DNA of 64,000 nucleotides, from contig CAYGZP010000001.1 of the NCBI GenBank assembly GCA_964354405.1, positions 15,634 through 79,633 on the forward strand, in the 5' to 3' direction. This stretch comes from Candidatus Woesearchaeota archaeon (GTDB taxonomy: Archaea > Nanobdellota > Nanobdellia > Pacearchaeales > UBA284). This document shows, in pieces, positions 1 to 15,800 of the stretch. Every line of letters starts with the position of its first letter. Position 1 is the first letter of the stretch. The position numbers were made by a program, and so were the translations under genes. The notes beneath the pieces are model-generated. The model was not told the origin of the DNA. It saw only the letters and a program-made list of their open reading frames with translations, and made no database searches.

Positions 1-91
1 GTCAATAAATTAATAAAAGAAACAATTTCTGAAAAACCTTCGCTTTTCTAAATGCCCTTTATCCAATTACTTGTCAATTGTAACTTATCAC

Positions 92-469
92 TTATCTTCT
101 TGCCAAGACAATCACTGCCCCAATCAATCCCAACACTGGCCCGATAACAAATCCGTGTGGTGCAAGTATCAGAGCGAACAGGCTCAAAACAAGCAAGAAT
201 ATCGCAGAGACTCTCGCAGTTTTATGTATTACATAAACCAAGACTATCATCAAGGCACCCAAGATAAAGGATATCAACGAAGCCACTGGTTCCATCGCCC
301 CCATCATCGATATGATCGCGGCAATCATCACTAAAATTCCACCAACCAATCCCAAGATATGTTCTGACTGAACAACTGAGACTTGTCTGGCAGCCGGAGC
401 TTTCGGAGCTCTCATCACTTTTCTTCTAGATTTCACTTTCTTTGCTTTTACTTTCCTCTTTTTTGCCAT
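92..469 (-). CDS. small membrane protein with lysine-rich N-terminal tail (hypothetical)
   Basis: 125-aa ORF. N-terminus MAKKRKVKAKKVKSRRK is followed by three hydrophobic helices. No family recognised. Confidence 0.35.
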   Translation of the reverse strand: MAKKRKVKAKKVKSRRKVMRAPKAPAARQVSVVQSEHILGLVGGILVMIAAIISMMGAMEPVASLISFILGALMIVLVYVIHKTARVSAIFLLVLSLFALILAPHGFVIGPVLGLIGAVIVLARR

Positions 470-491
470 GTATAGCCTATACTTTTGAGAT

Positions 492-878
492 TTAAAAAGT
501 TATCTTTGATTTAGAAAATCCATTAAGTGAAATCTGTTTAACTAATTTATGCATCCTTGCTTTTTCAATTTCTTTCCGTGAAAACCATTTATAATTTGTA
601 ACTTCGTCCATCTTTAGATTAATTCTTCCTTTATTGACCTTACAAATATAATGGAGAGTGTTTTTGCCATTGCGTTCTTTAAGTATATAAAATGGCTTTT
701 TCGCAATATTAATATTTAAATTAATTTCTTCCATAGCTTCTCTTTTCATGGCTTTTCTGTTAGTCTCTCCTTTTTCGACATGCCCCGCAACAAACATCCA
801 TATATCTAATTTTTTGTGATATATCAAAAGCAATTTCTTATTTCTAAAAATCAATCCCGCAGCGACCTCTTGTTTCAT
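492..878 (-). CDS. NUDIX hydrolase
   Basis: Nudix box GHVEKGETNRKAMKREAMEEINL matches the GX5EX7REUXEEXGU pattern; 128 aa. Confidence 0.6.
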   Translation of the reverse strand: MKQEVAAGLIFRNKKLLLIYHKKLDIWMFVAGHVEKGETNRKAMKREAMEEINLNINIAKKPFYILKERNGKNTLHYICKVNKGRINLKMDEVTNYKWFSRKEIEKARMHKLVKQISLNGFSKSKITF

Positions 879-944
879 AAAAATAAAATTTGTTAGAGAC
901 TTATAAATTTATTTAATTGTTCCAAAACAAAAGTTTCTTATTTA

Positions 945-983
945 TTAACCCCTCCTCAGTGACAAACCGAAAAGCTTATAAAT
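945..983 (+). promoter_or_regulatory. conserved upstream element A, copy 1: TTAACCCCTCCTCAGTGACAAACCGAAA followed by TATA-like AGCTTATAAAT
   Basis: Near-identical 38-nt element also at 3613-3650 and 11754-11792, each 20-40 nt upstream of a + strand start codon. BRE/TATA-like 3' half. Confidence 0.55.
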
Positions 984-1006
984 GTGAATCTCTTTAAAAT
1001 AAAACA

Positions 1007-1510
1007 ATGAAAGATTTAGTTAAGTTAGCAATGGCGATGTTTACGTTACTCTCTTTGTCTTGCTATCAAAAGGTAAAAAACGAAGAGAAATTTAAAGGCT
1101 GGTTTGCTTCAGCTATAATTTATGATTATCTTGGACAGGAAAAAAAGGCATTAGACTGTTTAGATTCTCTTCAAATCCATGCAAGAGAAGGAGAACTTCA
1201 ATTTTATAAACGATTGCCAAAAAAAAGGCTTCTTGAATTGTCCGAATGGGATTCTAGAGCTTGGATAGAGCGTGGAAAAATTTATAGAGAATTGGGGGAT
1301 TGTGAAGGAGCTCTAAAATGTTTTAGAACTGCTATTACTACTTATTTGGGAAATGGTGAAAGGTTTGAAAAGTTATCTGACTTGGATTCTTGGGATCCTA
1401 TAATTGCTTCTCGTATAGAAAGCGCTAAAACCTTTAAGGAAATGGGTGAAGAAAAAAGGGCTAAAAACTTTGGAAAAATTCTTGAAAAATATCTTAAGGC
1501 AAATTACTAA
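1007..1510 (+). CDS. putative lipoprotein with TPR-like helical repeats
   Basis: N-terminal signal with LSLSC lipobox-like cysteine. Helical repeats with W/Y/G/A spacing typical of TPR. Preceded by element A. Confidence 0.4.
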   Translation: MKDLVKLAMAMFTLLSLSCYQKVKNEEKFKGWFASAIIYDYLGQEKKALDCLDSLQIHAREGELQFYKRLPKKRLLELSEWDSRAWIERGKIYRELGDCEGALKCFRTAITTYLGNGERFEKLSDLDSWDPIIASRIESAKTFKEMGEEKRAKNFGKILEKYLKANY

Positions 1511-1525
1511 TCGCTTCGATTGAAC

Positions 1526-2596
1526 TTAAACTTTGATTAATTCTAAAATTCTATCTTTGTCTGTGGTATAAACAATCTCAAAGGCCTTAGCTTTAATAAT
1601 GGTCTCTCCTTTTTCTGCATTATGTTTTATATCAAAATTACCAATACCAAAACTACAGGCAGTTGACAAAGCTTTTAAAGGATAATTTTTACTTTCTGCC
1701 GAAATACAATAACTAGGGTCTGTTGAACAGCAAATGAGTGTCTCGCCTTGCGTCACTAATTTCACTATAGCATTTCTTAATTCTTGACCATCTTTGTACA
1801 ATTTTCCTTTTTCTACTTTAAGTGTCTTTTCTTTGGAGATATATTTTGCAATTGTTCCAACATTAGCAGTATATTGACTTAGCATCTGTTTTCCTGACTG
1901 ATCTGATTTGATAAGATATGCATTAGCTTCACTCCATGTCAGCTTCCTTTCATCTGGTTTAGAAAATTCTAAAGTTATGCCTGAAATTTGTAATTCTGGT
2001 TGAGTGTAAGGCCTCTGAAATCCACCATAATAGTAAGTCGAAATTATGCTGCCGGCATACATTACGTTATCTTTTTCTTCTTTATATCTTGGCACTGATA
2101 TTTTTCCGTTACTTATAATTCCATTCTTATCGAAGAATATGCTTGTTGAAAGATAATTTATTTGTGTTATTTTATCTTCTACCATAAACGAAGCGAGATT
2201 ACCAAGCATCGCAGCTATCCTATCTCCTTGGTCTACGTCCCTCTCTTCAATAAAAGTTTCTTCATATTGTAGAGCTGCTATAACACTGCTTAAAGGAGTC
2301 TGACCAACATAAGCTTCGTATTTTTGCTGCTGTTGATCATATTTAACATTAAAGGCGCCCCTAAGTTCTCCTTCATCATAAGTTAATCCATAAGTACTTA
2401 AATGATTTTGAACATTTTCTCGAGGAGTAAAGCAAAAGATAAGATGAAATGTGCCAATCTCGTCTTTCCATAAGTGTGCATATTTATTAGGGTCTTGAGT
2501 TGGAGCGCATCCAAAAATAGCTGTCGCAGAAGATGTTAGAAAAATACTTATTAAAATAAACAAGATAAACAACATAAACAGCACATATTTTCTCAT
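1526..2596 (-). CDS. secreted hypothetical protein
   Basis: 356 aa. N-terminal signal peptide MRKYVLFMLFILFILISIFLTSSATA. No recognisable domain. Upstream region is repeat C copy 1. Confidence 0.45.
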   Translation of the reverse strand: MRKYVLFMLFILFILISIFLTSSATAIFGCAPTQDPNKYAHLWKDEIGTFHLIFCFTPRENVQNHLSTYGLTYDEGELRGAFNVKYDQQQQKYEAYVGQTPLSSVIAALQYEETFIEERDVDQGDRIAAMLGNLASFMVEDKITQINYLSTSIFFDKNGIISNGKISVPRYKEEKDNVMYAGSIISTYYYGGFQRPYTQPELQISGITLEFSKPDERKLTWSEANAYLIKSDQSGKQMLSQYTANVGTIAKYISKEKTLKVEKGKLYKDGQELRNAIVKLVTQGETLICCSTDPSYCISAESKNYPLKALSTACSFGIGNFDIKHNAEKGETIIKAKAFEIVYTTDKDRILELIKV

Positions 2597-2654
2597 AATA
2601 AAATAAAACTTTTAAACTTTTTAAATTTATCTCGGTTTCGCAACTGTTCACTCA

Positions 2655-2772
2655 ACCACGACAAGCTTAATCCAGTATAACAATCTTCTTTAGTTTCAAC
2701 TGAAACAACCGATAACTTTGTATGCCAATTGATAGCTTATATTATCAAATGATAGAAAACATTCACTCAACC
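2655..2772. repeat. intergenic repeat C, copy 1 (about 120 nt, roughly 75-80% identical to 5347-5465) containing inverted repeat TTGATAGCTTATATTATCAA at 2729-2748
   Basis: Direct comparison of the two intergenic regions; both lie 50-170 nt upstream of minus-strand secreted-protein genes. Confidence 0.6.
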
Positions 2773-2810
2773 TTCATTCTTTTATCATTCAAGCAATAAT
2801 TCTTAGAACT

Positions 2811-3185
2811 CTAAGTATTGACAACAAGTTCTTTTTCAAAAATCTCATTAGCTTTTTTAGCAATAGTCCACTGCAATCTAAGCATCTGCCTTACTATTGG
2901 ATTTTTTTCATTAAGTTTAAACATTCTAGCCTTGCCAACCTTTCTTGTTTCAATTACAAGCCCTGCCTTAACAAACTCCGGCCAAAACGACATTAAACTC
3001 GTATAGCTTACTTCAGAGTTTTTTGCTATATCTGTTAAACTGTAATCGAAAGCTTGAAACGTAAGCAAAAAATCTAAAACTCTTAATTTTGGACTGTGCC
3101 CTACAACTTTTAAAAATATTGATTCTGACATATTATTTGCAAGAAATTGATATTTATAAATCCTTCTATTTTTAAACAATATCAT
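2811..3185 (-). CDS. putative winged-helix DNA-binding protein
   Basis: 124 aa, small basic alpha/beta protein with an HTH-like segment (SLTDIAKNSEVSYTSLMSFW). TATA-like CTTATAAATTTT about 40 nt upstream of the 3185 start. Confidence 0.35.
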   Translation of the reverse strand: MILFKNRRIYKYQFLANNMSESIFLKVVGHSPKLRVLDFLLTFQAFDYSLTDIAKNSEVSYTSLMSFWPEFVKAGLVIETRKVGKARMFKLNEKNPIVRQMLRLQWTIAKKANEIFEKELVVNT

Positions 3186-3246
3186 ACAAAAATGAAAACT
3201 TTCTTTTTTAAGAAAATTTATAAGTGTATTTCATCTTTATATTTTT

Positions 3247-3513
3247 ATGAAAGAAGAGGAGATCATTGCTACTTTATTAAAAAAACTGTATTTGGCTGGA
3301 AAAATAGGCCATAGCCATACTCCTTTTGAGAACTTGCCAAAGGGATTTCCCTCAAATATTGGGAAAGAAGTAAAGCAAATAGCAAAAATGCTTGCAAGGA
3401 AAGGCATATTAATTTTAAGTAAGCACAACTATGGCATTGGCGTTTCATTAAATCATAAAAGATTACAAGAAATAAAAGTAATTATTGAAAAAGTTTTTCC
3501 AAATATAGTTTAA
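3247..3513 (+). CDS. hypothetical small protein
   Basis: 88-aa ORF, no recognisable family. Confidence 0.25.
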   Translation: MKEEEIIATLLKKLYLAGKIGHSHTPFENLPKGFPSNIGKEVKQIAKMLARKGILILSKHNYGIGVSLNHKRLQEIKVIIEKVFPNIV

Positions 3514-3534
3514 TAAAATTATTGACTCCTCACT

Positions 3535-3612
3535 TCATCAAAACAGCCTTCTCCGGTTTCAATAATTCTTTAGAATCTTTTGGCTTTAGAAAAACAAAGT
3601 AAGTTATAAGTA
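3535..3612 (-). pseudogene. decayed fragment of a T9SS-like C-terminal sorting domain (repeat B), directly abutting element A copy 2
   Basis: Minus-strand translation gives ...GVNTYNLL.. and ..RIIETGEGCFDEV. Nucleotide-level similar to the 6519-6685 fragment and to the C-terminus of the 11821..12813 product. Stop codons and frameshift are present. Confidence 0.4.
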
Positions 3613-3650
3613 TTAACCCCTCGTCAGTGACAAACCGAAACCTTTAAATA
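3613..3650 (+). promoter_or_regulatory. conserved upstream element A, copy 2
   Basis: TTAACCCCTCGTCAGTGACAAACCGAAACCTTTAAATA, 22 nt upstream of the 3672 start. Confidence 0.55.
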
Positions 3651-3671
3651 TCTTAAACCATTATAAACATA

Positions 3672-4172
3672 ATGAAAAACTTAGAAAACAAACTTGGCTT
3701 CGGAGCAACTATTTTTAGTTTAATCTTAGCTCTATCTACAGCACTTTCTTGCGATAAAAAAGAAAAGGGTTTTGCTTATGTAAGTGAAGGCCCCCCATCT
3801 AAAGAAAAAACAGAAAATCCTGCTGAAATTTATATCAAAAAAGCTTTGAACTTTAAAGAGCAGGGGCAGCTTGACAGCGCCTTAGTTTATTCTACAAAAG
3901 CAATAAATAATCAAAGAATATTAGAAAGTGAGCAGGTAGGAAACATGCATTATCTTAGAGCCCAAATACACCAATATTTTAGTAGAAATAAAGAAGCCAT
4001 CGAAGATTATGAAGATGCAATTTACTGTTATTCTAGTAAGATGATGACAAAAGAATGTATTCCAATATATCTTGAAATGACAGAACTTCATGAAAAATTA
4101 GGCGATAAAGAAAAGGCAGAGGAATGTAAAAGATTAGCTGAAAGATTTGAAGAATACCGCAGAACACATTAA
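3672..4172 (+). CDS. putative lipoprotein with TPR-like repeats
   Basis: 166 aa; signal plus ALSC lipobox-like Cys. Helical repeat content. Same size and architecture as the 1007..1510 product. Confidence 0.4.
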   Translation: MKNLENKLGFGATIFSLILALSTALSCDKKEKGFAYVSEGPPSKEKTENPAEIYIKKALNFKEQGQLDSALVYSTKAINNQRILESEQVGNMHYLRAQIHQYFSRNKEAIEDYEDAIYCYSSKMMTKECIPIYLEMTELHEKLGDKEKAEECKRLAERFEEYRRTH

Positions 4173-4176
4173 TTCT

Positions 4177-5301
4177 CTAACCTCTTAATATTTCCATTAT
4201 TTTTATCAGTTCTTCCTCATTCGAAGGCTTTAAAATCTTAACATTCTTCGTTTGAATTTCAGTTGTGATACCAATTTCTTTTTCTCCTTCAGCAATAATT
4301 TTAAATTCACATTCTTCTGCTAAAGAATATTGCAACTTTCCATCAATTTCACCATAACAAAAAAGATATTCATTTTCTGCTTCACTAACTAAAAATGCTA
4401 AATTCTTACTCCTTAAATCAAAATAAGAAGAATAAAGAAAACGCTTGATTAGAGGAATCTTGACTCCTGCAACTATAGCGCCACTGCTATTTTTCTTAAT
4501 CAAAAAAGAGTTGTAAATCCAAGTATAATTAAACATCCCACTAATTCTTGTGAAATCTCTGATATTTAAAGCAAAATCTGAGCTTTGGTCTATAAAATAA
4601 GTTACATATGAACAAAAATCATCGCCAGGAAGATAGCAATAAATCTTTACCTTAGTATTTGGGGCATCCAACCAAAATGAGCCTAATTTATCATAAGTAT
4701 AACTTATTTTCATATCTTCTTCATAGGGTTCATCAAAAGCCTCATAAAAATACCATGCTTTTGTCTTTTCATCATGAATGCTATAGCTTCCCTTATTATA
4801 AACATAAATTTTCCTTTCGGTAAAATTAATTAAAGCCCTCTCGACCCGAATTTCCCAAGATGCTCTTTTGGCAACAATATCTCCAATTGAACTATCTTTA
4901 AACATAATCACTCCACTAACAATTCTTCCACTTTCATCAAGAGATAAATTTTCAATAATTCTGGCTCTTTGCCATTGCATCTCACGAAACAAAGAATCAG
5001 TTGTGTTAAAAATTCCTCGCATTTGTCTTTCATATTGTGGGAGTTCCTTGACTAAGTCGCTTATTTCTTCTTCTGAGAGCTCTCTCTTAATGATTATTTC
5101 AAACCAATAAGTACTTGTTTCGCCTGCTTCAATGAATTCATGATCTAAATCTTTAGCAATTAGATAAGTAAAAATCGCCCTGCCAGGAACATTGTTTACT
5201 AGCCTTATTGGAAGTGTTTGATCCTCTGCAATAACATTAGAAAACAATAAAATAAATGTTAATAATAACAAAATAGACAGTATTGGTTTTTTCAATTTCA
5301 T
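4177..5301 (-). CDS. secreted hypothetical protein
   Basis: 374 aa; signal peptide MKLKKPILSILLLLTFILLFSNVIA. Repeat C copy 2 lies upstream. Confidence 0.45.
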   Translation of the reverse strand: MKLKKPILSILLLLTFILLFSNVIAEDQTLPIRLVNNVPGRAIFTYLIAKDLDHEFIEAGETSTYWFEIIIKRELSEEEISDLVKELPQYERQMRGIFNTTDSLFREMQWQRARIIENLSLDESGRIVSGVIMFKDSSIGDIVAKRASWEIRVERALINFTERKIYVYNKGSYSIHDEKTKAWYFYEAFDEPYEEDMKISYTYDKLGSFWLDAPNTKVKIYCYLPGDDFCSYVTYFIDQSSDFALNIRDFTRISGMFNYTWIYNSFLIKKNSSGAIVAGVKIPLIKRFLYSSYFDLRSKNLAFLVSEAENEYLFCYGEIDGKLQYSLAEECEFKIIAEGEKEIGITTEIQTKNVKILKPSNEEELIKIMEILRG

Positions 5302-5346
5302 ACGAAAAGAAAATGTCGCGACCTTTTATAATTTATCTTTTATTTA

Positions 5347-5465
5347 ATCACGACAAACTTAATCTATTATAACAACTTTCTCCGACTTCAATCTAAACAA
5401 CTGAAAACTTTATCTCTCAATTGATAACTTATATTATCAACTGATAGAAAACATCCATTCACAAC
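5347..5465. repeat. intergenic repeat C, copy 2, with inverted repeat TTGATAACTTATATTATCAA at 5421-5440
   Basis: Aligns with 2655-2772 (cacgacaa.cttaatc...aactgaaa...caattgata.cttatattatcaa.tgatagaaaacat). Followed at 5500-5560 by a short repeat-B-like segment and a TATA (GATTTATAAAC) for gene 5586. Confidence 0.6.
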
Positions 5466-5585
5466 AGATTATCTCGTCTTCACAACTTTTTTTGTTGGCA
5501 ACCCAGCTTCTTCTGGCTTTATGAAATAAACTCTTAAAGAGAAAAAACGAAAGATTTATAAACAATTGTTAAATAATATTAACAT

Positions 5586-6095
5586 ATGTTAAAAATAATT
5601 AACGATTTAATGGTTTTTTTTGAAGATTGCTATAGAGAAATTAATGTAAGAGAATACGCCAAAATTAAAAAAATATCACCACCCACCGCCTCTAAACTAT
5701 TATCTTATTATTACTCTGAAAAGTTTTTAATGAAAAGAAAATATAAGAATTTACTTTTATTTTCAGCAAACAATCAAAATAAGCACTTTATTGATTTATC
5801 TAGAATATATTGGTCTGAAAGAATGAAAGAATTAATTGAATTCATAGAAAAAAGACTTATTTCTCTAACAATAATATTATTTGGCTCTCTTTCAAAAGCT
5901 GAAGTTAAATTAGATTCGGATATTGATCTGGCCATATTTGCGCATAAAAAAGAATTAAATATAGAAAGTTTTGAAAGAAAGTTCAAACGAAAAATAAGAA
6001 TATTTTGGTTTAAATCAGTAAAAGATATTAAAAGTAAAGAGCTCGCAAATAACATAGTCAATGGATATGTTTTAAAAGGGAGAATATTATTATAA
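5586..6095 (+). CDS. minimal nucleotidyltransferase (MNT) with N-terminal HTH-like region
   Basis: GSLSKAEVKLDSDIDLAIF matches the GS-x(9-13)-DxD polymerase-beta-type NTase motif. 169 aa. Confidence 0.55.
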   Translation: MLKIINDLMVFFEDCYREINVREYAKIKKISPPTASKLLSYYYSEKFLMKRKYKNLLLFSANNQNKHFIDLSRIYWSERMKELIEFIEKRLISLTIILFGSLSKAEVKLDSDIDLAIFAHKKELNIESFERKFKRKIRIFWFKSVKDIKSKELANNIVNGYVLKGRILL

Positions 6096-6097
6096 AA

Positions 6098-6511
6098 ATG
6101 AACTGGAGAGAATGCTGTAATAAAAGGATAGTAAAGAATGTAAACCCTGATTTAGATATGACAATCTCTCTAATCAAAAGTAGCGAGAATAAATTGAAAT
6201 CTGAAGAAAAACTTGTTATGAGCGCAGTAACTGCGAGTTCAAAAATTTCTCTTGTTTATGATTCATTGAGAGAACTTTTAGAAGCATTGGCTTTAAAAGA
6301 AGGATACAAAATTTATAATCATGAATGTTACACTGCTTTCATTAAAGAGATTATAAAAGAAAGTGACAGAGGAGACGAATTTGATGAAATAAGAAAGATA
6401 AGAAATGATGTGAATTATTATGGAAAAGAAATATCTGTAGAAGAGGCTGAAAATGTTATTAATAGAATAAAAAACCTAAGAGTTTCTATATCAAAATTAT
6501 TAAAAAAATAA
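6098..6511 (+). CDS. HEPN-like all-alpha protein, partner of the upstream MNT
   Basis: Start is 3 nt after the MNT stop. All-helical 137 aa. Conserved R..RN motif region (RKIRNDVNYY) lacks the canonical His. Confidence 0.4.
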   Translation: MNWRECCNKRIVKNVNPDLDMTISLIKSSENKLKSEEKLVMSAVTASSKISLVYDSLRELLEALALKEGYKIYNHECYTAFIKEIIKESDRGDEFDEIRKIRNDVNYYGKEISVEEAENVINRIKNLRVSISKLLKK

Positions 6512-6518
6512 CTAACCT

Positions 6519-6685
6519 TTACCTCATCAAAACAACCCTCTCCGGCTTTAGCAATTCTTTGCCATCTTCAGGTTTCAAGAAAACAAAGTAAGCCCCATTA
6601 GCCAAGCCATAAGTATTAATCTTATTGCCTTTTCCTTTATAAGCAATCTTCCCAGAAACGTCATAAAGATAATAATTTATCCTTT
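6519..6685 (-). pseudogene. orphan fragment of a T9SS-like C-terminal sorting domain (no start codon)
   Basis: Minus-strand translation is ERINYYLYDVSGKIAYKGKGNKINTYGLANGAYFVFLKPEDGKELLKPERVVLMR*. It has no Met and a stop lies upstream. Matches the LYDASGRKI...NGVYFV...KLTLLK tail of 11821..12813. Confidence 0.5.
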
Positions 6686-6795
6686 CTTAAAAAGGTTTTG
6701 AGTTAAAGAAAATTATTAGCTAAATCTTCAACTTTTTGTTGATTATTATTTAACCATTTAAGAAAATTTATAAAGCTTTTATTCTTATTCGTTAA

Positions 6796-7896
6796 ATGAA
6801 AAAAGAGTTCATGGATCCTTGGGGGGATACTTTATTAGATTATGAAAAAGCTGCAAAAAAATTTGGTATTCAACCTATTTCTGAAGAAATGAAAAAATTC
6901 TTTAAAAATAATAGATTTTTTTCTAGAAATATTATAATGGCACATAGGGATTTTGACAAAGTTTTTGAAAGAATAAAATCAAAAGAGCCCTTTATTCAAA
7001 TGACTGGAATAGCTTCTTCTGGAAAATTTCATTTTGGTCATAAAATGATAGTAGATTTATTTCTTTCTTTCAAGGAATACAATTCAAAAAATTATTTTGG
7101 AATTTGTGATATTGATGGATATGTTAGTAGGCCAGATTTTAAAGTGCCCTCTTTAGAAAAAGCAAAAGAATATGCTATTAATAATTTAGCTCATGTTCTT
7201 GCATTAGGATTAAATGAAAAAGATGTTTTTGTTCAAAGTAAAAAAGAACAAAGATACTATGAATTTGCTTTTGAATTAAGTAAAAAGATTACTGGAAATA
7301 TGTTTAAAGCAGTTTATGGTCATTTAGATTTAGGAAAAATTTCTGCTAATTTATTGCAATATGCAGATATTTTACATCCACAATTAAAAGAATATGAAGA
7401 TAGAATGCCAAGTATTACAGCGATAGGATTAGAACAAGATCCGCATATAAGAGTAACAAGGGATATTGCAAAAAGATTGCCTTATAATCTTGAATTGCCA
7501 AGCTCACTTTACATTATTTACCAAGGGGGTTTATTAGCTAATAAAAAAATGTCATCGTCACAACCAGAAACTGCTATTTTTCTCGATGATAGTGAAGAAG
7601 AAGCAGCAAAAAAATTAAGAAATTCATTTACAGGGGGGCGAGAAAACATAGAAAAACAAAAAGAACTTGGAGGACAACCCCCAATATGTAGAATTTTTGA
7701 AATATATAGATTCCATCATCCTAATGATGATTTTGTTAAAGAAATAGAAAAAAATTGTAAAGCAGGAAAATTAATGTGTAAAGATTGTAAAAAACAATGT
7801 ATAGATTTTATAATTTCATTTTTAAAAAATCACCAGAAAAAACTTGTAAAAACCAAGAAAATTGCTGAGAAGATGGTATTGAAAGATGATAAATAA
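6796..7896 (+). CDS. trpS: tryptophanyl-tRNA synthetase, archaeal/eukaryotic type
   Basis: Class I aaRS with HIGH-like GKFHFGH and KMSSS. Strong similarity to eukaryotic TrpRS blocks (EQDPHIRVTRDIAKRLPY; SFTGGRENIEKQKELGGQP). Cys-rich C-terminal tail. Confidence 0.75.
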   Translation: MKKEFMDPWGDTLLDYEKAAKKFGIQPISEEMKKFFKNNRFFSRNIIMAHRDFDKVFERIKSKEPFIQMTGIASSGKFHFGHKMIVDLFLSFKEYNSKNYFGICDIDGYVSRPDFKVPSLEKAKEYAINNLAHVLALGLNEKDVFVQSKKEQRYYEFAFELSKKITGNMFKAVYGHLDLGKISANLLQYADILHPQLKEYEDRMPSITAIGLEQDPHIRVTRDIAKRLPYNLELPSSLYIIYQGGLLANKKMSSSQPETAIFLDDSEEEAAKKLRNSFTGGRENIEKQKELGGQPPICRIFEIYRFHHPNDDFVKEIEKNCKAGKLMCKDCKKQCIDFIISFLKNHQKKLVKTKKIAEKMVLKDDK

Positions 7897-8935
7897 ACTT
7901 AATCCTTGGAAAATACCTACTTTAACACCTAAAATATATGAATACCTAATTAAGCATTATTCTTTACAACCTATAGATTTTAAATTAAAAAATAATCCCA
8001 TTTTCTTAAGAAGGAATTTAATAGTAGGTCATTATAAATTTTTAGAATGGTTAAAAAAAGCAGAAAAAGGAGAAAAAGTCGCTTTAGTAAGTGGATTTAT
8101 GACGAGTGGTTTTTTGCATTTAGGAAGTTTGGCTGTAATTAAACAAATAGTATATTATCAAAAAAACTACGGTGCTAAAATAATTATTCCAATAGCAGAT
8201 TTAGAAGCTATTTGTGTTAGAAAAACAAAAAAATCTGAAATAAAAAGAATTTTGATAGATTTTTTAGCTCATTTTTTTGCAACTGGTCTTTCTCCAAAAG
8301 ATACTTTAATATATTTACAAACTAAAAATTTAGAAGTATTAAAACAAGCAAGTTTATTTACAGGAAAGATTAGTTTAGAAAATCTAGAAAAAATATATGA
8401 TAGAAAATTAACTCTTGGAGAAATACACTCTTCATTAGTTATGGCTGCTGATATTCTTTATCCTCAATTTTTTAATTATAAAGGAACTTTAATTAATTTA
8501 GGAATAGATGAAATATGTCATTTTTCTCTTGTAAAAGAATTAATTCCTATATTAGGAAAAGAATTTTATATTCCTAGTATAACATACAATAAAATAATTA
8601 CAGGACTAAATGGATCTAAAATGGGCAAAAGCATACCCAAAAATAGCATACTTCTTCTAGATAAACCAAAAATAGCACGATCTAAATTAATAAAATTAAA
8701 AAACAAAAATATAGAATTATTTCAAAACACTGCTTTTAATATTCTTGAATGGTATTGCGAAGATGATTCTATAATTAAGAAAATTTTAAATATTTCTGAT
8801 AAAAAAGAAGCAAATAACTTGGCAATTAATGAAGCTTGTGATGTAGTTCAAAAACTTTTAGAAAAACATCAAAAAAAATATAGAAAAAATCTTCCAATAG
8901 CAAGAAAGATCGTAAAAGAATTAATGAAAGACTAA
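7886..8935 (+). CDS. tyrS: tyrosyl-tRNA synthetase-like class I aaRS (archaeal/eukaryotic type)
   Basis: GFMTSGFLHLGS (HIGH with the second His replaced) and GSKMGKS. Blocks LYPQ...GIDE...TGLNGSKM resemble archaeal/eukaryotic TyrRS. Overlaps the previous gene by 11 nt (operon). Confidence 0.55.
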   Translation: MINKLNPWKIPTLTPKIYEYLIKHYSLQPIDFKLKNNPIFLRRNLIVGHYKFLEWLKKAEKGEKVALVSGFMTSGFLHLGSLAVIKQIVYYQKNYGAKIIIPIADLEAICVRKTKKSEIKRILIDFLAHFFATGLSPKDTLIYLQTKNLEVLKQASLFTGKISLENLEKIYDRKLTLGEIHSSLVMAADILYPQFFNYKGTLINLGIDEICHFSLVKELIPILGKEFYIPSITYNKIITGLNGSKMGKSIPKNSILLLDKPKIARSKLIKLKNKNIELFQNTAFNILEWYCEDDSIIKKILNISDKKEANNLAINEACDVVQKLLEKHQKKYRKNLPIARKIVKELMKD

Positions 8936-8936
8936 G

Positions 8937-9914
8937 ATGAAAAAAACAATAAAATATAAGGCATTAGAATTGGGTAAAGATGGAAAGTTAAGAATTGTAC
9001 AAAAAGAATTATTTACTTCTAAACCATATGCAAAAATGATTTACAGTGGAATTTGTGGAACTGATAAACATGCAATAAATGGGTCTTTGAAATTAGATCT
9101 TCCAATAGTCCTGGGGCATGAAAATGTTGGAATAGTTAACGGAAAAAGAGTTACGTGGTCAACAATTTTACCATGCAAAAAATGCGCCAATTGCTTATGT
9201 GGAATGGAAAACATATGTGAAAAAAATCAATTGTTTGGAATAACAACAAGAAAACCAATGGCAGGTGGTTTTGGTGAATATACCCCTCTGCCCAAAAATA
9301 CAATATTATTTGAGATTCCTGATGATATAGACGATGATGTTGCTGTTTTAATAGAGACTATGGCAAGTACAAAAGCACTAAATAGAGTTAATTTAAATGG
9401 TAAAAAAATATTGATTATAGGTTCTGGTCCAATAGGGATGTTATCTGCAATTCACGCTAAATCTAAAGGTGCCGAAACTATAGGAATTACAGGGTATAAA
9501 GAACAAGTTAATTTAATAAAAGGCATCATTGATGAATTTTATGAAAAAAACATTCCTGTAAAGAAGATAAAAAGTGAATATGACATTGTTATGGATGCTG
9601 GAGGAAATGTTGGTTCACTTGACTATTCTGTTGAAGCGGTAAAACCAAGAGGAATTGTTATAGAAAGTGGATGCATGGTTAAAGATTTCTTCTTTGACAT
9701 TTCAAAATTAGTCAAAAAAGAACTTACAATGATTACGCAACTAGGTTATGTGCCTAAAGATTTCAAATGGGCTATAGAACTAATCAGAAAAAATAAAAAA
9801 ATATTAAAAAAAGTCATAACTCATAAATTTAAAATTACAGAATATGAGAAAGCGGTTGATGTTCTTAAAAATGTAAAACATGGAAAAGTTATGTTTTCTT
9901 TTAAAGAAAACTAA
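8937..9914 (+). CDS. zinc-dependent alcohol dehydrogenase family (MDR) oxidoreductase
   Basis: GICGTDKH and GHENVG catalytic-zinc motifs, structural-zinc Cys cluster CKKCANCLCG, and GSGPIGM Rossmann motif. Confidence 0.7.
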   Translation: MKKTIKYKALELGKDGKLRIVQKELFTSKPYAKMIYSGICGTDKHAINGSLKLDLPIVLGHENVGIVNGKRVTWSTILPCKKCANCLCGMENICEKNQLFGITTRKPMAGGFGEYTPLPKNTILFEIPDDIDDDVAVLIETMASTKALNRVNLNGKKILIIGSGPIGMLSAIHAKSKGAETIGITGYKEQVNLIKGIIDEFYEKNIPVKKIKSEYDIVMDAGGNVGSLDYSVEAVKPRGIVIESGCMVKDFFFDISKLVKKELTMITQLGYVPKDFKWAIELIRKNKKILKKVITHKFKITEYEKAVDVLKNVKHGKVMFSFKEN

Positions 9915-10687
9915 AGCTTATTCTTTTTGAGTATATTTTTTAATTTCTCCTTATTTAAATCTCCTATTTTAATATCCCCTACTTTTTGTTTATAAGTATA
10001 GACTTCTCCTATTGAATTAACAAAACATGAATCCTCAGGCATATCTTTTGCTTTACATGCATTAATGTTTAGATGGGGAAATTTGGACTTTATCTTTAAA
10101 ATTAGAGAATTATACTCCTCATGAGGAATAGAGAATTTTTTCTTGTATCTTTTGGCCTTATTTAGTGGAACAAATTCAAGTAAAAACCATTCATTTATCT
10201 TATAGGTCTTTAATATATCTCCGATATTTTGTATATCTGAAAAATTCAATCGGGTTATTAATGTTTTAATGTCAACTTTTATTCTGAGGTTATTGAATGT
10301 TTTAATTAAATATAATGTTTTGTTGAAGATGTTTCCGCTTTTTCTCATAATAAAACTTTTTTGGTTATTTGAGCTATCTAAAGTCAAACTAACTATATCA
10401 ACATATTTTAATATTTCTTTTGCTTTGTTTTTTGTAATATTCAGTCCAGTTATATGAGCGCTTATAGATAATCCTTTAGACCGAGCATACTTTAAAATCT
10501 CTAGAAAATCCTTGCAATAAGCAGGGTCCCCTCCACTAAGTATAATCCCTTTAAAACCTGCTTTGACAATTTGGGAAATTATAAACTTTTTGAAATTTGT
10601 TGAAACATCCCTATATCTTTTGTCCCAAAAACAAAAATTACAATTTAAAGGACAAGTGTTCCCCATAAGATAATATGCTATTTTCAT
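9911..10687 (-). CDS. radical SAM domain protein
   Basis: CPLNCNFC (Cx3Cx2C) near the N-terminus; GGDP motif; 258 aa. Confidence 0.55.
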   Translation of the reverse strand: MKIAYYLMGNTCPLNCNFCFWDKRYRDVSTNFKKFIISQIVKAGFKGIILSGGDPAYCKDFLEILKYARSKGLSISAHITGLNITKNKAKEILKYVDIVSLTLDSSNNQKSFIMRKSGNIFNKTLYLIKTFNNLRIKVDIKTLITRLNFSDIQNIGDILKTYKINEWFLLEFVPLNKAKRYKKKFSIPHEEYNSLILKIKSKFPHLNINACKAKDMPEDSCFVNSIGEVYTYKQKVGDIKIGDLNKEKLKNILKKNKL

Positions 10688-10722
10688 TTAATCAATAACA
10701 AGAAAAAGCTTTATAAATTTTC

Positions 10723-11703
10723 TTAAAAATTAATTTTCATGGCTTCTTGAGCTTCCTTTAATGTTTGTTTAGCTACTTTTCTTGCTATTTTGCTTGAATC
10801 ATATAAAATCTGTCTTACTTGTTCTCTTTTAGAAGAATAATGGGCTCTTGTTTCTCTAAATAAAGAAAAATGATTGTATAAAATATCTGTTAATTGTCTT
10901 TTACAATCAACACAACCTCTATGACCACTTGAACACTCTAATTTAAGTTGTTGTTTATTTGGATTATAATAATTGTGAAGCATATATACACTACATATTT
11001 CGGGATGTCCAATATCGGCTTTTCTTATTTTTTGGATATCTGTAATCATAGTTGTTACTTTCTTAAGGAGGTTTTCTTTATTTTCTTCTGGAGAAATAAA
11101 ATTCCCTAAACTTTTACTCATTTTCCTTCCATCAGTACCTAATACTTTAGGATTTTCTGTTAAAATTATTTTAGGTTCTGGAAAAACATAATCAAAGAGG
11201 CCATTAAATCTCCTTATGATTTCTCTTGTTAATTCAAGATGAGGTGCTTGATCTTTTCCTACAGGTATGTGGGTTGCTTTGTATAATGCCATATCTGAAG
11301 CTTGTAATATAGGATAACCAAGAATGCCATAACTAGGATTTTTAATTTTTTCATTTACAACTATCTCTTTATATACAGGACACCGTTCTAACCAAGATAC
11401 GGGTGTTATCATAGAAAGCAAAGTATAAAGTCCAGTGTGCTCTGGAACAAGAGATTGCAAGAATATTGTTGATTTATTAGGATCAATTCCCAAAGATAGC
11501 CAATCAATAACCATTTCAAAAATATTTTCTTTTATTTTTGAATAATCTGTTCTATCTGTCATTGCATGAAAATCTGCAACTTCAAAAAAACATTTTTCTC
11601 CTTCATTTTGTAGTTTTAACCAACTATCAACCACCCCTACAATATGACCTAGATGCAACTTTCCAGTAGGTCTCATTCCACTTAATATTACTTTTTTCTC
11701 CAT
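10723..11703 (-). CDS. trpS2: tryptophanyl-tRNA synthetase, bacterial type (second TrpRS)
   Basis: SGMRPTGKLHLGH, GIDPNKSTIFLQSLVPEH, PVGKDQAPHLELTREIIRRFN and KMSKS align closely with bacterial TrpS. 326 aa. Confidence 0.75.
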   Translation of the reverse strand: MEKKVILSGMRPTGKLHLGHIVGVVDSWLKLQNEGEKCFFEVADFHAMTDRTDYSKIKENIFEMVIDWLSLGIDPNKSTIFLQSLVPEHTGLYTLLSMITPVSWLERCPVYKEIVVNEKIKNPSYGILGYPILQASDMALYKATHIPVGKDQAPHLELTREIIRRFNGLFDYVFPEPKIILTENPKVLGTDGRKMSKSLGNFISPEENKENLLKKVTTMITDIQKIRKADIGHPEICSVYMLHNYYNPNKQQLKLECSSGHRGCVDCKRQLTDILYNHFSLFRETRAHYSSKREQVRQILYDSSKIARKVAKQTLKEAQEAMKINF

Positions 11704-11753
11704 ATTTTTTAAAATGACCTTTATTTTAAATATCTTTCTCGAATAGCGGCTTA

Positions 11754-11792
11754 TTAACCCCTCGTCAGTGACAAACCAAAAAGTTTAAATAT
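11754..11792 (+). promoter_or_regulatory. conserved upstream element A, copy 3
   Basis: TTAACCCCTCGTCAGTGACAAACCAAAAAGTTTAAATAT, about 30 nt upstream of the 11821 start. Confidence 0.55.
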
Positions 11793-11820
11793 CTCTTTAT
11801 CTTATAAATCATATCGAAAA

Positions 11821-12813
11821 ATGTCAAATATAATCACATTAGCCCAACTCATAGCCCAACTTCTAAACACAAATCCCCAAGACATGAAGAACACACAATT
11901 CATTCCTCTCAATCCAGTCCAATATGTCATGATAGATGAAAAAAAAGAAGAAAAAATAAGTCCAAGTCTTGCTGCGCCCATGTTTCATGGAAGGGTATGG
12001 AGAGATTTATATGGGGCTGGTGCAGATAGTGCAGATGTAATCATAACAAATAAAAATGGGATTGATACAGTTATGGCAAGAGTTGGAAGGACAGGGACAA
12101 CCAGTTATTACAGTAGAACTGTTCCAGATGGCTGGGGTTTAGTAATAGGAGATATAGTAATAATAAAAGCAAAAGATATTGATGGTGACAGTGCAAAAAC
12201 ATGGAGAAATGTTACAAGTGCAACCGGAGCAAATCTAGTTATTGACTTGTTCACAGAAAATGTATATAATACTCATAAAGGACACTCATTACTTATCAAA
12301 GCAGTTAAGGATGACTTAATTGATAGTGTTGATGCAAAGTGTTGGGTTAAAGGAAAACCAGATACATTGCAAGATAGATTCAGAAGGAATACTTCATTCT
12401 ATAACATTGCTTTCAACGCAGAAAACTTCCCAACAGCTTCAAGGCCAACTTTGGGAGACAGCATTTTTTTCAAGATGACTACAGGTACTTATGCAGCAGA
12501 ATCAAAAGGACTTTATTTAAATCAGTTTATCGACGGTGATACATTCCCTTCATGCTCATTAAGATTACTTGGCGTAACAGAAGAACAATTAGAAAGAAAA
12601 TTAAGAGATAATAGACTTATCATAACACCAAACCCTTCAAAAGGAATGATTGTCTTGCCATCTCAATTCAAAGGATTCTTGTATGATGCTTCAGGAAGAA
12701 AAATTATGGATATAAAAAATGAAAAACTTGATTTGAGAAATTACTCAAACGGAGTTTACTTCGTGACAGACATTGATAACAAACAAAGAGGAAAATTAAC
12801 TTTACTCAAGTAA
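11821..12813 (+). CDS. hypothetical protein with T9SS-type (Por_Secre_tail-like) C-terminal domain
   Basis: C-terminal 65 aa, ITPNPSKGMIVLPSQFKGFLYDASGRKIMDIKNEKLDLRNYSNGVYFVTDIDNKQRGKLTLLK, matches the consensus of bacterial type IX secretion C-terminal sorting domains. No obvious N-terminal signal peptide. Confidence 0.45.
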   Translation: MSNIITLAQLIAQLLNTNPQDMKNTQFIPLNPVQYVMIDEKKEEKISPSLAAPMFHGRVWRDLYGAGADSADVIITNKNGIDTVMARVGRTGTTSYYSRTVPDGWGLVIGDIVIIKAKDIDGDSAKTWRNVTSATGANLVIDLFTENVYNTHKGHSLLIKAVKDDLIDSVDAKCWVKGKPDTLQDRFRRNTSFYNIAFNAENFPTASRPTLGDSIFFKMTTGTYAAESKGLYLNQFIDGDTFPSCSLRLLGVTEEQLERKLRDNRLIITPNPSKGMIVLPSQFKGFLYDASGRKIMDIKNEKLDLRNYSNGVYFVTDIDNKQRGKLTLLK

Positions 12814-12821
12814 TTTATTAT

Positions 12822-15800
12822 TTATTCTTGCACCCAAGTAATATTTGAGGTTAAACCACCAACATAATAAATAGTTCCTGCTTGAAGATTAAAGTTAAGT
12901 TGATCTTCGGGGAAGTCCCTTATAAATTTACATTGTGAAAAGGTACCTAGTAAATAATACTGTTCAATCGGGTCCCATGCCGCAACAACAGAGGTTTCAT
13001 CATTCCCTAATCCCAAACCTAAAGCTATACACAAATCAACCGCCTTCGCCAACCTCGTGTCAAGAGGAAGAGCGATGTAATTGGCCATGCCGTCCTGATT
13101 TCCATATAAATTATAACTAACTCGCTCAGGAAGCTCTCCGACCCACGTGAAATCATCAAAGTCCATTGTCGCAGCGACAAAGTAAGGCGAGTTGTCTGTG
13201 AGAGGGAAAATTCCTGTGACTGTGTATTCTGGAGGCCCTTGAGTGACTGAATCACCAGGAGTGATATAGCCTCCTTGATATTGGTTTGAATAAGCTGTGT
13301 CTTGCATTATCGCCGCCCCCGTCATATAATTATTTCCTTGTTCAGATTGAGTTTCATATCTGTGATCTTCTTCGTAAATTCCATAAATTCCCTTGCCTCT
13401 GTTGAACCATCCTCTCGCCGAGCCCTGTTGATCCTGTCTCATGACATTCCATCTCGCAATATAATCTATAGGAACAGTGCTAAGTAAGAAATCTTTAGTT
13501 GAGTGAATTCCTTCGATTGGAAGGAACAAGAACCAATTGATGCTTGTTTGAGGAGTCTCACCATAACGTTTAGGTTCATTATATATCAGAGGCTGAGTGT
13601 ATTTAACAAAAATATCTGAGCTTTGGTTGCATGCTATAGCATACTCTCCTTCTTCGCACTGGGCATAAGTTATCAGATTATCAGAAGGCTTGGCCAAGTC
13701 ACATCTGACATTATACCATCCCTCGCTCTTTGAAGGCGCAAAACAGCACTGTGGCTCATCTCCTATAACACATAAATCCTCTTTCAAAAACTCTTCTGTG
13801 CAAGGATCATACCATCCCTCGCGATGCACTCCCTGATAATACTGCCAGCACTCTGGCTTGCAAGCTCCTATTCCAAGTTTAACTTTCGCTATGACTTTAA
13901 AAAATTTCAACCTTTCATCAACTCTCTCTTGCCATGAATTCCCCGAGATACCTTGCCCAATCAAAGTGAAATTGCTCAAATTTCTCTGTCCTTGAACCTT
14001 GTCAGCAGCCAAAACATTTGTGTTCAACAACTGATTTCCTGCAGCAGTCTGCCAAGTTAGTATTAATATTTTGTCAGGGATATTCCACGAGACATCTGTA
14101 TCAAGTTTAGGAAGCGCTGAACAATTTGTTATGTTCATTGCACAATCTTCAGGACAATTGCAATAATTCTCGCAACTCTGGCATAATCCATCTCCGCATT
14201 TAGTGCAGCATTCGCTTCCAACAGACGCACACACGTCACAATCATTAGTTGTTCGATAACAATCCATATCGTAAATGAAACTTGTAGTTAATCCTTCACA
14301 ACACTCTTTATAAGAAGGATGCCCTGGAGGAAATATTGCAAATGCCGAGCATAACTGTTCACAGCAATGTCCACAGTCTTCTGGGCAGTTAGTGCAATTC
14401 TCTCCAATGGTTGCATCACAAATACTATCCCCGCACCATTCTACAGGCTCAACTCCGCCTCCACCGCCGCCGCCAGATGTTCTGACATTAAAACAATGCT
14501 CAATATTGCTCATTGTTGTATTCCATTGATCACTTGAGTCATTAGCCCACTGGTTCCAGCATATTATCTTGCCAGCATCTCCTGCTGTATTAATAGTATT
14601 ATTACACCATCCCGAGTTTCCTGCCATATCGCAAGTCGAGACATTAGTCCAAGTTCCCGAATCATTAGTTCTGAAAACTGCTTGGCTCAACTCAACATCA
14701 TCCTCCCAGTAAACATAAACATTGACATTAGTTCCTTGCCTTACACTCCCTCCTGAATTGTCATCATCTTGGCTGTAATTAGGCGCTGAAGTGTCCCCGC
14801 CGCCGGCCTCGCCCATCGGCGCGAAGATGCTGAAGTTGCTGATATTAACATAAACATAATTGCCAGCAGTGCTGACATTGCTTCCATCAATAATGCTCCA
14901 TGTTCCAAACACTGGCGGATCCCCAGAATATTCCCACATTGCTAAAGTGCTTTCATTGACATCGCCGAGCTCGCTTTCATTGTAAGAGATGTTAAGAGTA
15001 ATCCATGGTGAACTAGGAACCCCCAATACACAATTTTGTTGAGTTTCACAATAAGAGTCATTATAAGTGTCACAAGTTGAGTGAGTGCCTTCGCACCATC
15101 CTCCAACATTCCATGAGCAACCCTGCTGTCCAGGACATTCTTCCTCAAAGAAGTTCCCACAGTCTAAAGCCTCCCCCGCACAAAGGAAAGTGCCTGAGAG
15201 ATCTTCAGTTGTGTTGCTTATATTAAGATACTTGCTTATATTTTGATAGCCGTCAGGGTCGGTTGCAGGTGATGTCGCTGATTTCAAGGCAATATTCCAT
15301 GCATTAAAACTGGTTCTCATGTCATCAACGCTCAAATTAGTCACAGAATCATAACCCGAAGCTGGGTCATCAGCATATTCTATATAAAAGTCATAAATCC
15401 CGCTGTTAGTAATCTCATTGTTAGTGAAATCATTGCTGCCGCTCTCTAACAACGCTTCTCCAGGGCTTGCAATATAAATCGCATAATCCACATCATCAAG
15501 AGTATTGCCTTCAACATCACAATTATCCTCATCACTCAAATAGATTCCATAATCTCCTCCTGAAATGTTATTGAATGAGACATTATGCAAACTTCCTGGG
15601 CCACCGCCCCCTCCTGAAGTTGCATCCAGTAAAACATGAACAGTGTTAGCATCCATAACATTTGAAAAGACAACATCACTATCACATAATCTTGCTACAA
15701 CCCCATATTCATTATTCGTAAAATTATTTTCTTCTATTCGGTTGTTCCCATTCACATCATAAACCCCATAATAATTATTGTTTAAGATAGATTCAGAAAC

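Follow-up and report, generated by a model that had tools for sequence, protein, structure and literature searches.

A probable rearrangement scar with promoter duplication at a variable surface-protein locus of a DPANN-type archaeon

Cell-surface proteins are thought to mediate the attachment of episymbiotic archaea of the DPANN type to their hosts, so a variable surface-gene locus with a candidate regulatory motif has some modest value as a lead. Here, we analysed a stretch of 64,000 nucleotides (hereafter the window) from a Candidatus Woesearchaeota archaeon, corresponding to positions 15,634 to 79,633 of the 420-kb contig CAYGZP010000001.1 (assembly GCA_964354405.1). Near the left end of the window, between about 900 and 6700, two pairs of convergent genes, named X and Y, stand among three families of repeated DNA, named A, B and C. 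Gene Y encodes a protein with tetratricopeptide repeats (TPR) and a lipoprotein-like N-terminus, and gene X encodes a putative secreted protein. An earlier note on this DNA had taken the region for a recombination-driven cassette system. Comparison with orthologous loci on related contigs suggests that it is probably the scar of past rearrangements and insertions, with duplication of a promoter, at a variable locus for surface proteins in a DPANN-type (Woesearchaeota-like) archaeon, and not a programmed cassette system. A pattern of conserved non-coding and variable coding DNA can mimic a cassette system; here the orthologous loci resolve it into a promoter common to several genes, the dead promoter of a module in two copies, and stumps of genes.

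Two convergent gene pairs

The first pair is composed of Y1 [1007-1510, plus strand] and X1 [1526-2596, minus strand]. Y1 encodes a 167-aa TPR protein (TPR_2, E=4.6e-8) with a lipobox-like N-terminus, LLSLSC, which is a putative lipobox read from the sequence. X1 encodes a protein of 356 aa with a signal-peptide-like N-terminal segment, which belongs to a small archaeal family and has no Pfam domain. The second pair is composed of Y2 [3672-4172, plus strand], a 166-aa TPR protein with the lipobox-like N-terminus STALSC, and X2 [4177-5301, minus strand], a protein of 374 aa with a signal-peptide-like N-terminus and no Pfam domain. In both units element A is followed by Y on the plus strand, by the convergent X on the minus strand and by element C, and the earlier note had described this architecture correctly. 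All-against-all BLASTN of segment [1-7000] against the window recovered the repeat families A, B and C that the note had listed, which are far above chance by BLASTN and by shuffling. The coding sequences between the repeats were said to be unalignable, and this also held: BLASTP showed no real similarity between X1 and X2 (E=0.096) and a single 37-aa TPR match between Y1 and Y2 (E=0.004).

Orthologues of both pairs were found on related archaeal contigs, designated here by L and a number. X2 is 61-74% and X1 43-65% identical to its orthologues. The orthologues of Y1 in L007 and L008 are 61% and 56% identical, respectively, and the orthologue of Y2 in L004 is 64% identical. Among 1.8 billion clustered proteins, the X1 family is represented by only 10. 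Wherever the flanks of a relative are long enough, L006 excepted, X converges with a TPR gene of about 166 aa, and the 3' ends often overlap, so that X and Y form an old, conserved functional pair. These comparisons define an uncharacterised gene pair restricted to DPANN-type archaea, made of a secreted protein X without known fold match and a TPR lipoprotein. In L006, which has the closest X2 relative (74%), Y2 and its promoter are precisely missing, a presence/absence polymorphism of the lipoprotein; about 25 nt after the X2 stop codon, segment [860-1060] of L006 holds the DUF7129 promoter region that is found beyond Y2 in L004 [3620-3810].

The two pairs occupy different loci in the relatives. 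At the X1-Y1 locus of L007 and L008, X1 overlaps an upstream gene encoding 248 aa, and Y1 faces RNase J and Mre11/Rad50. At the X2-Y2 locus of L003 and L004/L005, X2 comes after a giant Cys-rich protein and CTD321, a 321-aa protein with a C-terminal domain (CTD) described below, and Y2 faces DUF7129-DisA. RNase J, Mre11/Rad50, DUF7129-DisA and the other neighbours of the pairs at the loci of the relatives were not found in the 64-kb window. The copy number of X-Y and its neighbourhood thus differ between related genomes.

When the X1 and X2 families were compared with hhalign, a probability of 39% and E=3e-4 over 86 colinear columns were obtained, and the profile comparison of Y1 and Y2 gave a weak, remote colinear match. 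X1 and X2 are at best probable ancient remote paralogues. An AF2 model of X2, built from 4 sequences, had a pLDDT of 47 and was unusable, and no homology to X could be demonstrated for the 421-aa secreted protein of L019. The earlier note had held that the modules do not look like ordinary paralogy. Instead, the orthologues of X1 and X2, at 43-74% identity, indicate conventional evolution as ancient paralogues, which is part of what the note itself had named as evidence against its proposal. The same orthologues bear on another explanation, a recent 2.7-kb tandem duplication followed by extreme diversifying selection on X and Y with conserved flanks. It would account for the near-equal spacing of the units (2692 and 2668 nt) and for the similar identities within A, B and C (75-79%). 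However, the separate orthologues of X1 and X2 are located at different loci, so these genes diverged long before the repeats; a recent duplication is thereby refuted unless the orthologues are recent horizontal transfers, and we regard it as extremely improbable.

Element A, a promoter shared by three genes

Element A is found directly upstream of Y1, of Y2 and of a third gene. A1 [943-1006, plus strand], the promoter of Y1, consists of a 32-nt upstream core, TATTAACCCCTCCTCAGTGACAAACCGAAAAG, and then a TATA-like box, CTTATAAAT, with the ATG following at 1007. In A2 [3611-3671, plus strand], the promoter of Y2, the core [3611-3642] is followed by the box TTTAAATA [3643-3650] and by the ATG at 3672, with leaderless spacing. 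The box of A2 is 26 nt before the ATG, and a TATA box at this distance corresponds to the geometry of archaeal leaderless promoters. The third copy, A3 [11752-11820, plus strand], which the earlier note had missed, is placed to drive the gene of a 330-aa protein. A1 and A2 are 77% identical over 943-1019 / 3611-3684 and 76% identical over 943-1004 / 3611-3672, and A3 [11752-11821] is 84.5% identical to A2. A 24-nt core, TTAACCCCTCNTCAGTGACAAACC, has three exact copies in the 64 kb, while 0 are expected from 100 shuffles. The A core had no exact match in GTDB species genomes, JGI metagenomes or IMG/VR.

Relatives carry a related motif, GTGAYAAA..GAAA..TTTAAATA, before the Y orthologues of L004, L007 and L008 and before CTD321 of L003. 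Its presence before orthologous genes in relatives indicates that A is a native promoter and not a junction site. The cores are 91-94% identical among the three copies in the window and 70-72% identical to the orthologous promoters. The A1 core is 70% identical to the promoter of the L007 orthologue, and the part of A1 near the start codon is 80% identical to L007 and 74% to A2. For A2 and the orthologous L004 promoter, the core is 72% and the proximal part 76% identical. The three cores are more alike than the orthologous sites, which suggests homogenisation and not simple conservation. The A core is thus a putative transcription-factor site that has been homogenised within the genome; either gene conversion or co-evolution with the factor could be the cause. 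Element A is similar to the shared promoters of archaeal regulons in that a 32-nt core stands directly upstream of TTTAAATA at three genes and in that a related motif occurs at the orthologous genes of relatives. It differs from them in that its cores are nearly identical (91-94%) and closer to each other than to the orthologous sites.

Promoter and start-codon segments of about 50 nt are also alike between unrelated genes elsewhere in the window: 6757-6805 and 10678-10727 (inverted) are 88% identical, and 866-916 and 3208-3259 (inverted) are 81% identical. Compact promoters of near-identical sequence seem frequent in this genome, and element A is less surprising for it.

Element C, a dead promoter joined to a gene stump

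The two X genes have their own promoters on the minus strand, and element C lies beyond them. The promoter of X1 [2597-2646], GATAAATTTAAAAAG, has a TATA-like box about 30 nt before the ATG. The promoter of X2 [5302-5338], AAATTATAAAAGG, is orthologous to that of X2 in L004, ATTATAAAAG. The X1 promoter resembles both the X2 promoter and the promoter downstream of the CTD321 gene in L003 (score 31, p<0.001, L003 8900-9085). Element C follows as C1 [2647-2772] and C2 [5339-5464], both described on the plus strand, which are 79% identical over 2654-2769 / 5346-5461 (E=7e-23). All reading frames of C contain stops and the mismatches show no codon periodicity, which rules out a small conserved open reading frame (ORF).

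C can be described as composed of two halves. The best-conserved part of the X-distal half, TTGATAATATAAGNTATCAATTG, has a 23-nt core that is found exactly in five other archaeal contigs, one of which is labelled Candidatus Woesearchaeota. In these five contigs, the core lies directly upstream of the ATG of a gene encoding a helix-turn-helix (HTH) nucleotidyltransferase of 176-177 aa, of the minimal nucleotidyltransferase (MNT) type, followed by a partner of 134 aa; there it constitutes the palindromic operator and TATA region of a two-gene module. In the comparison of L014 with L015, the conserved block of the module starts 46 nt before the ATG and reaches as far as the partner's stop codon, in unrelated contexts. 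C1 is 89% identical to the L014 promoter at 2545-2590, and C2 is 83% identical to L014 at 2539-2590. In C1, the operator/promoter [2707-2752] leads to an ATG at 2750 that opens a frame of 16 codons. In C2, the operator/promoter [5393-5444] leads to a start codon that is now CTG. Neither copy has an intact TATA box, and only C1 keeps the start codon. Moreover, this promoter is on the plus strand, i.e. directed away from the X genes. As judged from these alignments, C is not the promoter of X, and its core is the dead operator, promoter and start codon of an MNT-type module. The core had 0 matches in IMG/VR, which gives no viral link, and no relics of the MNT or partner coding sequences were found elsewhere in 1-7000.

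Taken with the X promoter, the X-proximal half of C can be aligned to the 3' end of CTD321 and the promoter that follows it in L003 and L004. In C1, segment [2647-2706, minus strand] resembles the last codons of a CTD321-type gene and ends in KLVVVE before the stop; the gene stump of C2, next to X2, ends in KFVVIK, and CTD321 of the relatives ends in KFVVVE. The alignment of C1 with the L003 CTD321 end has a score of 31 vs 17 +/- 2.5 for shuffles (p<0.001). Derivation of C from the 248-aa gene was also tried, and that alignment was not significant (p=0.03-0.15). An exact 11-nt direct repeat, TTCACTCAACC, brackets C1 at 2647-2657 and 2762-2772, and C2 has no such bracket; the first copy of the repeat (2647-2657) coincides with the putative CTD321 stop region. 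C is absent from the relatives: about 60 nt separate CTD321 from X2 in L004, and in L008 X1 overlaps the gene upstream of it. C is therefore young relative to X and Y.

Element B and the T9SS-like C-terminal domain

Two copies of element B correspond to the 3' ends of genes on the minus strand. B1 [3533-3606] comprises the last 24 codons and the stop of a gene with a CTD similar to those of the type IX secretion system (T9SS); its peptide ends in TYFVFLKPKDSKELLKPEKAVLMK, and the copy ends exactly at the start of A2. B3 [6522-6686] is a stump of 55 codons that has an in-frame TAA before it and no start codon, the ends being read as YDVSGKIAYKGKGNKINTYGLANGAYFVFLKPEDGKELLKPERVVLMR and GLANGAYFVFLKPEDGKELLKPERVVLMR, each followed by a stop. 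B1 and B3 are 75.5% identical over 3510-3603 / 6500-6592 (E=6e-11; score 64 vs 16.6 +/- 2.6 for shuffles), and their peptides have an amino acid identity of 78% (E=1.6e-9). They differ in 14 codons, with 8 synonymous changes and otherwise conservative ones, which indicates that B1 and B3 diverged as functional paralogues and were truncated later. The middle copy listed in the earlier note, at about 5500-5560, fared less well than this pair. This segment, B2 [5470-5560, minus strand], is possibly a strongly decayed stump of a CTD gene; it is not statistically secure, with a marginal p of about 0.006 against B1 (mononucleotide shuffles) and p=0.27 against B3. Two further candidates were considered: B0, at 879-945 upstream of A1, was not significant as a B stump (p>0.5), and B' (2770-2830) was marginal (p=0.004 vs B1, p=0.32 vs B3).

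An intact protein with such a domain is encoded at 11821-12813 (plus strand). This 330-aa protein is a homologue of CTD321, and its gene is inverted and convergent with the gene of a 1935-aa protein. B3 is 40% identical to its C-terminus (E=8e-4). The T9SS-like label given in the earlier note is backed by profile matches, all of them sub-threshold. The B3 peptide scored 20.1 bits against TIGR04183 (E=4.6e-4, cutoff 23). The 330-aa protein scored 20.8 bits against TIGR04183 (cutoff 23) and 24.8 bits against PF18962 (E=2.7e-5, cutoff 27), and CTD321 of L003 scored 12.7-14.6 bits against T9SS CTD profiles, below the cutoffs. In the 330-aa protein, in CTD321 and in the frames of B1 and B3, the match runs up to the stop codon. 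The resemblance to T9SS type A C-terminal sorting domains (Por_Secre_tail) consists of a beta-rich tail with the pattern ...G.YF..., 55-70 aa long, at the end of B3, of the 330-aa protein and of CTD321; the differences are that all scores stay below the curated cutoffs and that B1 and B3 are truncated and lack start codons. The T9SS is a system of Bacteroidota, and none is known from archaea.

The intact MNT-type pair

An intact two-gene module is located between B2 and B3. Its first gene [5586-6095, plus strand] encodes an MNT-type protein with an N-terminal HTH-like region and a minimal nucleotidyltransferase domain, which matches PF18765 (Polbeta; E=1.6e-7, 31.8 bits vs a cutoff of 26.9) and PF01909 (NTP_transf_2; E=1.1e-5, 26.2 bits vs a cutoff of 21); its match to the MntA profile (E=2.3e-6) is below the cutoff. 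The partner gene [6098-6511, plus strand] begins after a gap of 2 nt and encodes 137 aa. A palindrome, TTAACATATGTTAA [5564-5607], with overlapping arms of 24 nt that are 83% complementary, spans the promoter and the start of the MNT gene and may be its operator.

The pair had been called MNT-HEPN in the earlier note, and only the first half of this name is borne out. The partner is HEPN-like by position and size only: it has no significant Pfam or NCBIfam match and no PDB sequence match, and RNDVNYYG stands instead of the motif Rx4-6H, while its homologue in L015 matches PF05168 with E=0.35 only. The MNT and the partner are 33% and 27% identical, respectively, to the pair of L014, and homologous pairs are kept as a block in L014, L015 and L017. 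The partners (6098-6511; L014 3173-3577; L015 5970-6377; L017 936-1340) share an invariant R..RN...YYG that replaces Rx4-6H. In the motif R-N-x-x-x-Y-Y-G, a Y is found at the place of the catalytic H, and the partners may represent a non-canonical or inactive HEPN lineage. The L017 partner is split by a stop codon into pieces of 62 and 70 aa.

These features can be compared with MNT-HEPN (type II/VII) toxin-antitoxin systems, which have an autoregulated palindromic operator. As in such systems, the C core is the operator, promoter and start codon of a compact two-gene module, and one intact but divergent member of this family is present in the window. In contrast, C is a dead 5' fragment only, which is duplicated and points away from the X genes, and the intact partner has no significant HEPN match and a Y for the catalytic H, so that toxin-antitoxin activity is putative. 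The intact pair lies 145 nt downstream of the dead C2 promoter and its palindrome differs from the C operator, which suggests module turnover at one site.

L014, a Woesearchaeota metagenome-assembled genome, carries an island of small modules (HicAB-like, minimal nucleotidyltransferase, MNT and partner, MazF-like). They are separated by a repeated junction of their own, GACTCGCTAGCACTCGTGATTGATAGAAGAATTTTAATG... (1318-1447, 2005-2050, 3600-3690, 4325-4400), which has no hairpin potential.

Native neighbours and gene order

Between the two X-Y units lies a divergent gene pair. Its minus-strand gene [2811-3185] encodes a winged-helix DNA-binding protein of 124 aa (106 from the second ATG), with a match to the ArnR1-like winged-helix domain at E=4.9e-4, below the cutoff, and 267 homologues that are labelled DPANN/Nanoarchaeota at their source. 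The plus-strand gene [3247-3513] is an 88-aa ORF that is conserved with it in L019 and L020. There, the orthologous pair (77.7% nucleotide identity) stands beside DUF7129-DisA, which indicates that the winged-helix/88-aa pair is native and not an insert. On the minus strand, the ancestral order is kept, with CTD321 (now a stump), X2, Y2, the 88-aa ORF and the winged-helix gene. Beyond the winged-helix gene, C1-X1-Y1 stands in place of DUF7129-DisA. The gene content of this neighbourhood varies among relatives: L003 has TPR265 and X2-Y2, L004 has X2-Y2, and L019 has other secreted and TPR genes. Such variation supports an evolutionary hotspot.

Assembly support and the absence of cassette features

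The window was matched at 100% identity over 1-2436 and 2526-6982 by contigs assembled independently from four sequencing runs. All junctions are reproduced, and the arrangement is thus not an assembly artefact. The strain-level variation expected in the earlier note did not appear: all six Logan contigs, from the four runs, are identical to the window, which is uninformative and does not prove the absence of variants.

We weighed whether the region could be an active site-specific cassette array, similar to an integron or to a cluster of attC sites lacking integrases (CALIN), in which B or C would be recombination sites and the X-Y, winged-helix and MNT units would be mobile. Archaeal integrons, including those of Nanoarchaeota, carry toxin-antitoxin and signal-peptide cassettes (Ghaly et al. 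2022, PMC9668308). As in such arrays, small gene units alternate here with repeated junction DNA; they include a toxin-antitoxin-like pair and proteins with signal peptides, both of which are enriched in archaeal integron cassettes (PMC9668308), and the X-Y units are found in differing contexts in relatives. However, A, B and C have no attC-like hairpin potential, with folding z values of -1.1 to +1.8 relative to shuffles, and Pfam and NCBIfam scans of the ORFs in 92-12813 found no recombinase or integrase. These scans identified NUDIX, TPR, HTH, nucleotidyltransferase, aminoacyl-tRNA synthetase (aaRS), alcohol dehydrogenase (ADH), radical SAM and CTD proteins. Furthermore, the units are gene pairs with their own promoters, in convergent or divergent orientation and with a TATA box about 26-30 nt before the ATG, and not promoterless co-oriented ORFs, while the winged-helix/88-aa unit is syntenic with relatives and the six contigs show no structural variants. 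The mismatches between repeats are ordinary, mostly bidirectional transitions (13/16 in B1/B3 and 16/21 in C1/C2). With these transitions, the lack of an adenine bias and no reverse transcriptase among the scanned ORFs, a diversity-generating retroelement was ruled out as well. The junctions have ordinary origins, A as a promoter, C as a dead promoter with a gene stump and B as gene stumps, and a cassette array is highly improbable. Of the proposal made in the earlier note, the mosaic with conserved junctions stands, and so does the surface-protein hotspot in the weak evolutionary sense that gene content varies among relatives; the recombination-driven cassette with A, B and C as junction sites is not supported.

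A/B/C were also ruled out as RNA genes, since they fold no better than shuffles and have no Rfam match: at gathering thresholds the window has only four tRNAs, located elsewhere, and nothing credible was found in 800-6900 at E<=5.

A model for the origin of the region

The observations can be arranged in a model of rearrangement and promoter duplication. X1Y1 and X2Y2 are probably ancient paralogous convergent units, which lie at two separate loci in relatives. The X2Y2 side keeps the ancestral order, with X1Y1 added behind the winged-helix gene. An MNT-type module would have been inserted in antisense orientation into the 3' end of a CTD321-type gene upstream of X and would then have decayed. 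C can be read as the resulting fusion, consisting of the operator, promoter and start of the dead module and the last 20 or so codons of the CTD321-type gene, with the X promoter following. A block of about 190 nt that includes this X promoter was presumably duplicated in this lineage and is now found before both X genes. X1 of the relatives overlaps the 248-aa gene before it and lacks a separate promoter; the copied upstream region of X2 most likely gave the relocated X1 its promoter, a case of promoter capture.

The remaining elements would fit into the same model. A is the promoter of the Y genes and of CTD330/321, made of the 32-nt core, a B recognition element and TATA box (BRE/TATA) and a leaderless start, and its core may be the site of a putative factor that defines a small surface-protein regulon. 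A is, in any case, a candidate promoter motif for surface-protein genes. B1 and B3 appear, with moderate support, to be the 3' stumps of two paralogous CTD genes that were lost by deletion or insertion. The intact pair [5586-6511] is a second, different module at the spot of the dead one, which points to turnover of modules.

Several points weigh against this model. The copies of A, B and C were counted within the 64-kb window of the 420-kb contig, and the order of events is deduced from relatives that are a handful of short metagenomic contigs of uncertain relationship, among which both X loci were never found on one relative. The similarity between the X-proximal half of C and CTD321 is short, with about 21 nt that are strong, and some pairings have p=0.026-0.16. 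With three identical copies, the 24-nt A core is less variable than transcription-factor sites usually are. C1 and C2 share the same module-side end, which fits a duplication after decay and would also fit a small mobile element. Finally, the operator and start segment of C has 2/37 mismatches vs 23/79 in the rest of C (Fisher p=0.003); better conservation of the operator hints at a function, possibly by exaptation, and not at a pure relic.

Regulatory exaptation, which is compatible with the scar model, would mean that the paired palindromic operator of C (TATCAnTTGATA and TATCAATTG, separated by 21 nt) was retained about 100 nt before each of the X promoters. It would be bound by an HTH protein, e.g. 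the MNT-type protein or the neighbouring winged-helix protein, and X1 and X2 would be co-regulated with, via A, the Y and CTD genes. The operator segment has few mismatches although the relic TATA box is destroyed in both copies, HTH regulators adjoin both copies of C, and the A cores are near-identical at three promoters. On the other hand, the palindrome at the intact MNT gene, TTAACATATGTTAA, differs from that of C, a short later tract of gene conversion could explain the uneven conservation of C, and relatives regulate X without C. We consider exaptation unlikely. A broader version, in which A and C together are the cis-regulatory wiring of a lineage-specific surface-protein regulon, with the A site kept identical by gene conversion and an operator captured from a selfish MNT-type module, then duplicated and retained upstream of X1 and X2, is a doubtful extension to which we give still less weight. 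If it were true, cell-surface modules would be controlled by a toxin-antitoxin-type HTH regulator.

The small mobile element mentioned above would be a non-autonomous element similar to a miniature inverted-repeat transposable element (MITE). In this case C, and possibly the A core too, would have been inserted independently upstream of X1 and X2. The ends of C are sharp and coincide in both copies, the TTCACTCAACC repeat brackets C1 and the same sites in relatives lack C, as would be expected for insertions. However, C has neither terminal inverted repeats nor a hairpin, the bracketing repeat is absent at C2, and there are only two copies of C in the 64 kb. Outside this genome, the C core was found only as the promoter of a functional module, and two independent insertions at an equal distance from the X starts, each with a similar TATA box, are unlikely. 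This explanation is very improbable, and the scar with promoter duplication remains the reading that we favour.

Wider setting of the window

The window encodes an archaeal-type S10 protein, and L15e, S19e and L31e are present on related contigs. To the left of the window lie ordinary genes, among them those of HisRS and of a phosphatase, which indicates that the array is not continued leftward. The window is AT-rich, with a G+C content of 27-33% within the first 12 kb and of 36-42% beyond. The low-G+C first 12 kb could be an acquired segment or a compositional domain. The step at about 12 kb coincides with A3, the 330-aa CTD gene and the gene of the 1935-aa protein. This protein is encoded by one of two giant ORFs on the minus strand, 12822-18629 (1935 aa) and 33353-40963 (2536 aa), and its C-terminal part has a homologue in the 652-aa Cys-rich secreted protein encoded before CTD321 in L003 and L004. 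Three paralogues of PF00579, the class-I Trp/Tyr-type aaRS, are found within 5 kb (6796-7896, 7886-8935 and 10723-11703), with a Zn-ADH-like gene [8937-9914] and a radical SAM gene [9911-10687] among them. Such a grouping is uncommon in a small genome and may be a biosynthetic cluster in which aaRS-like enzymes are used.

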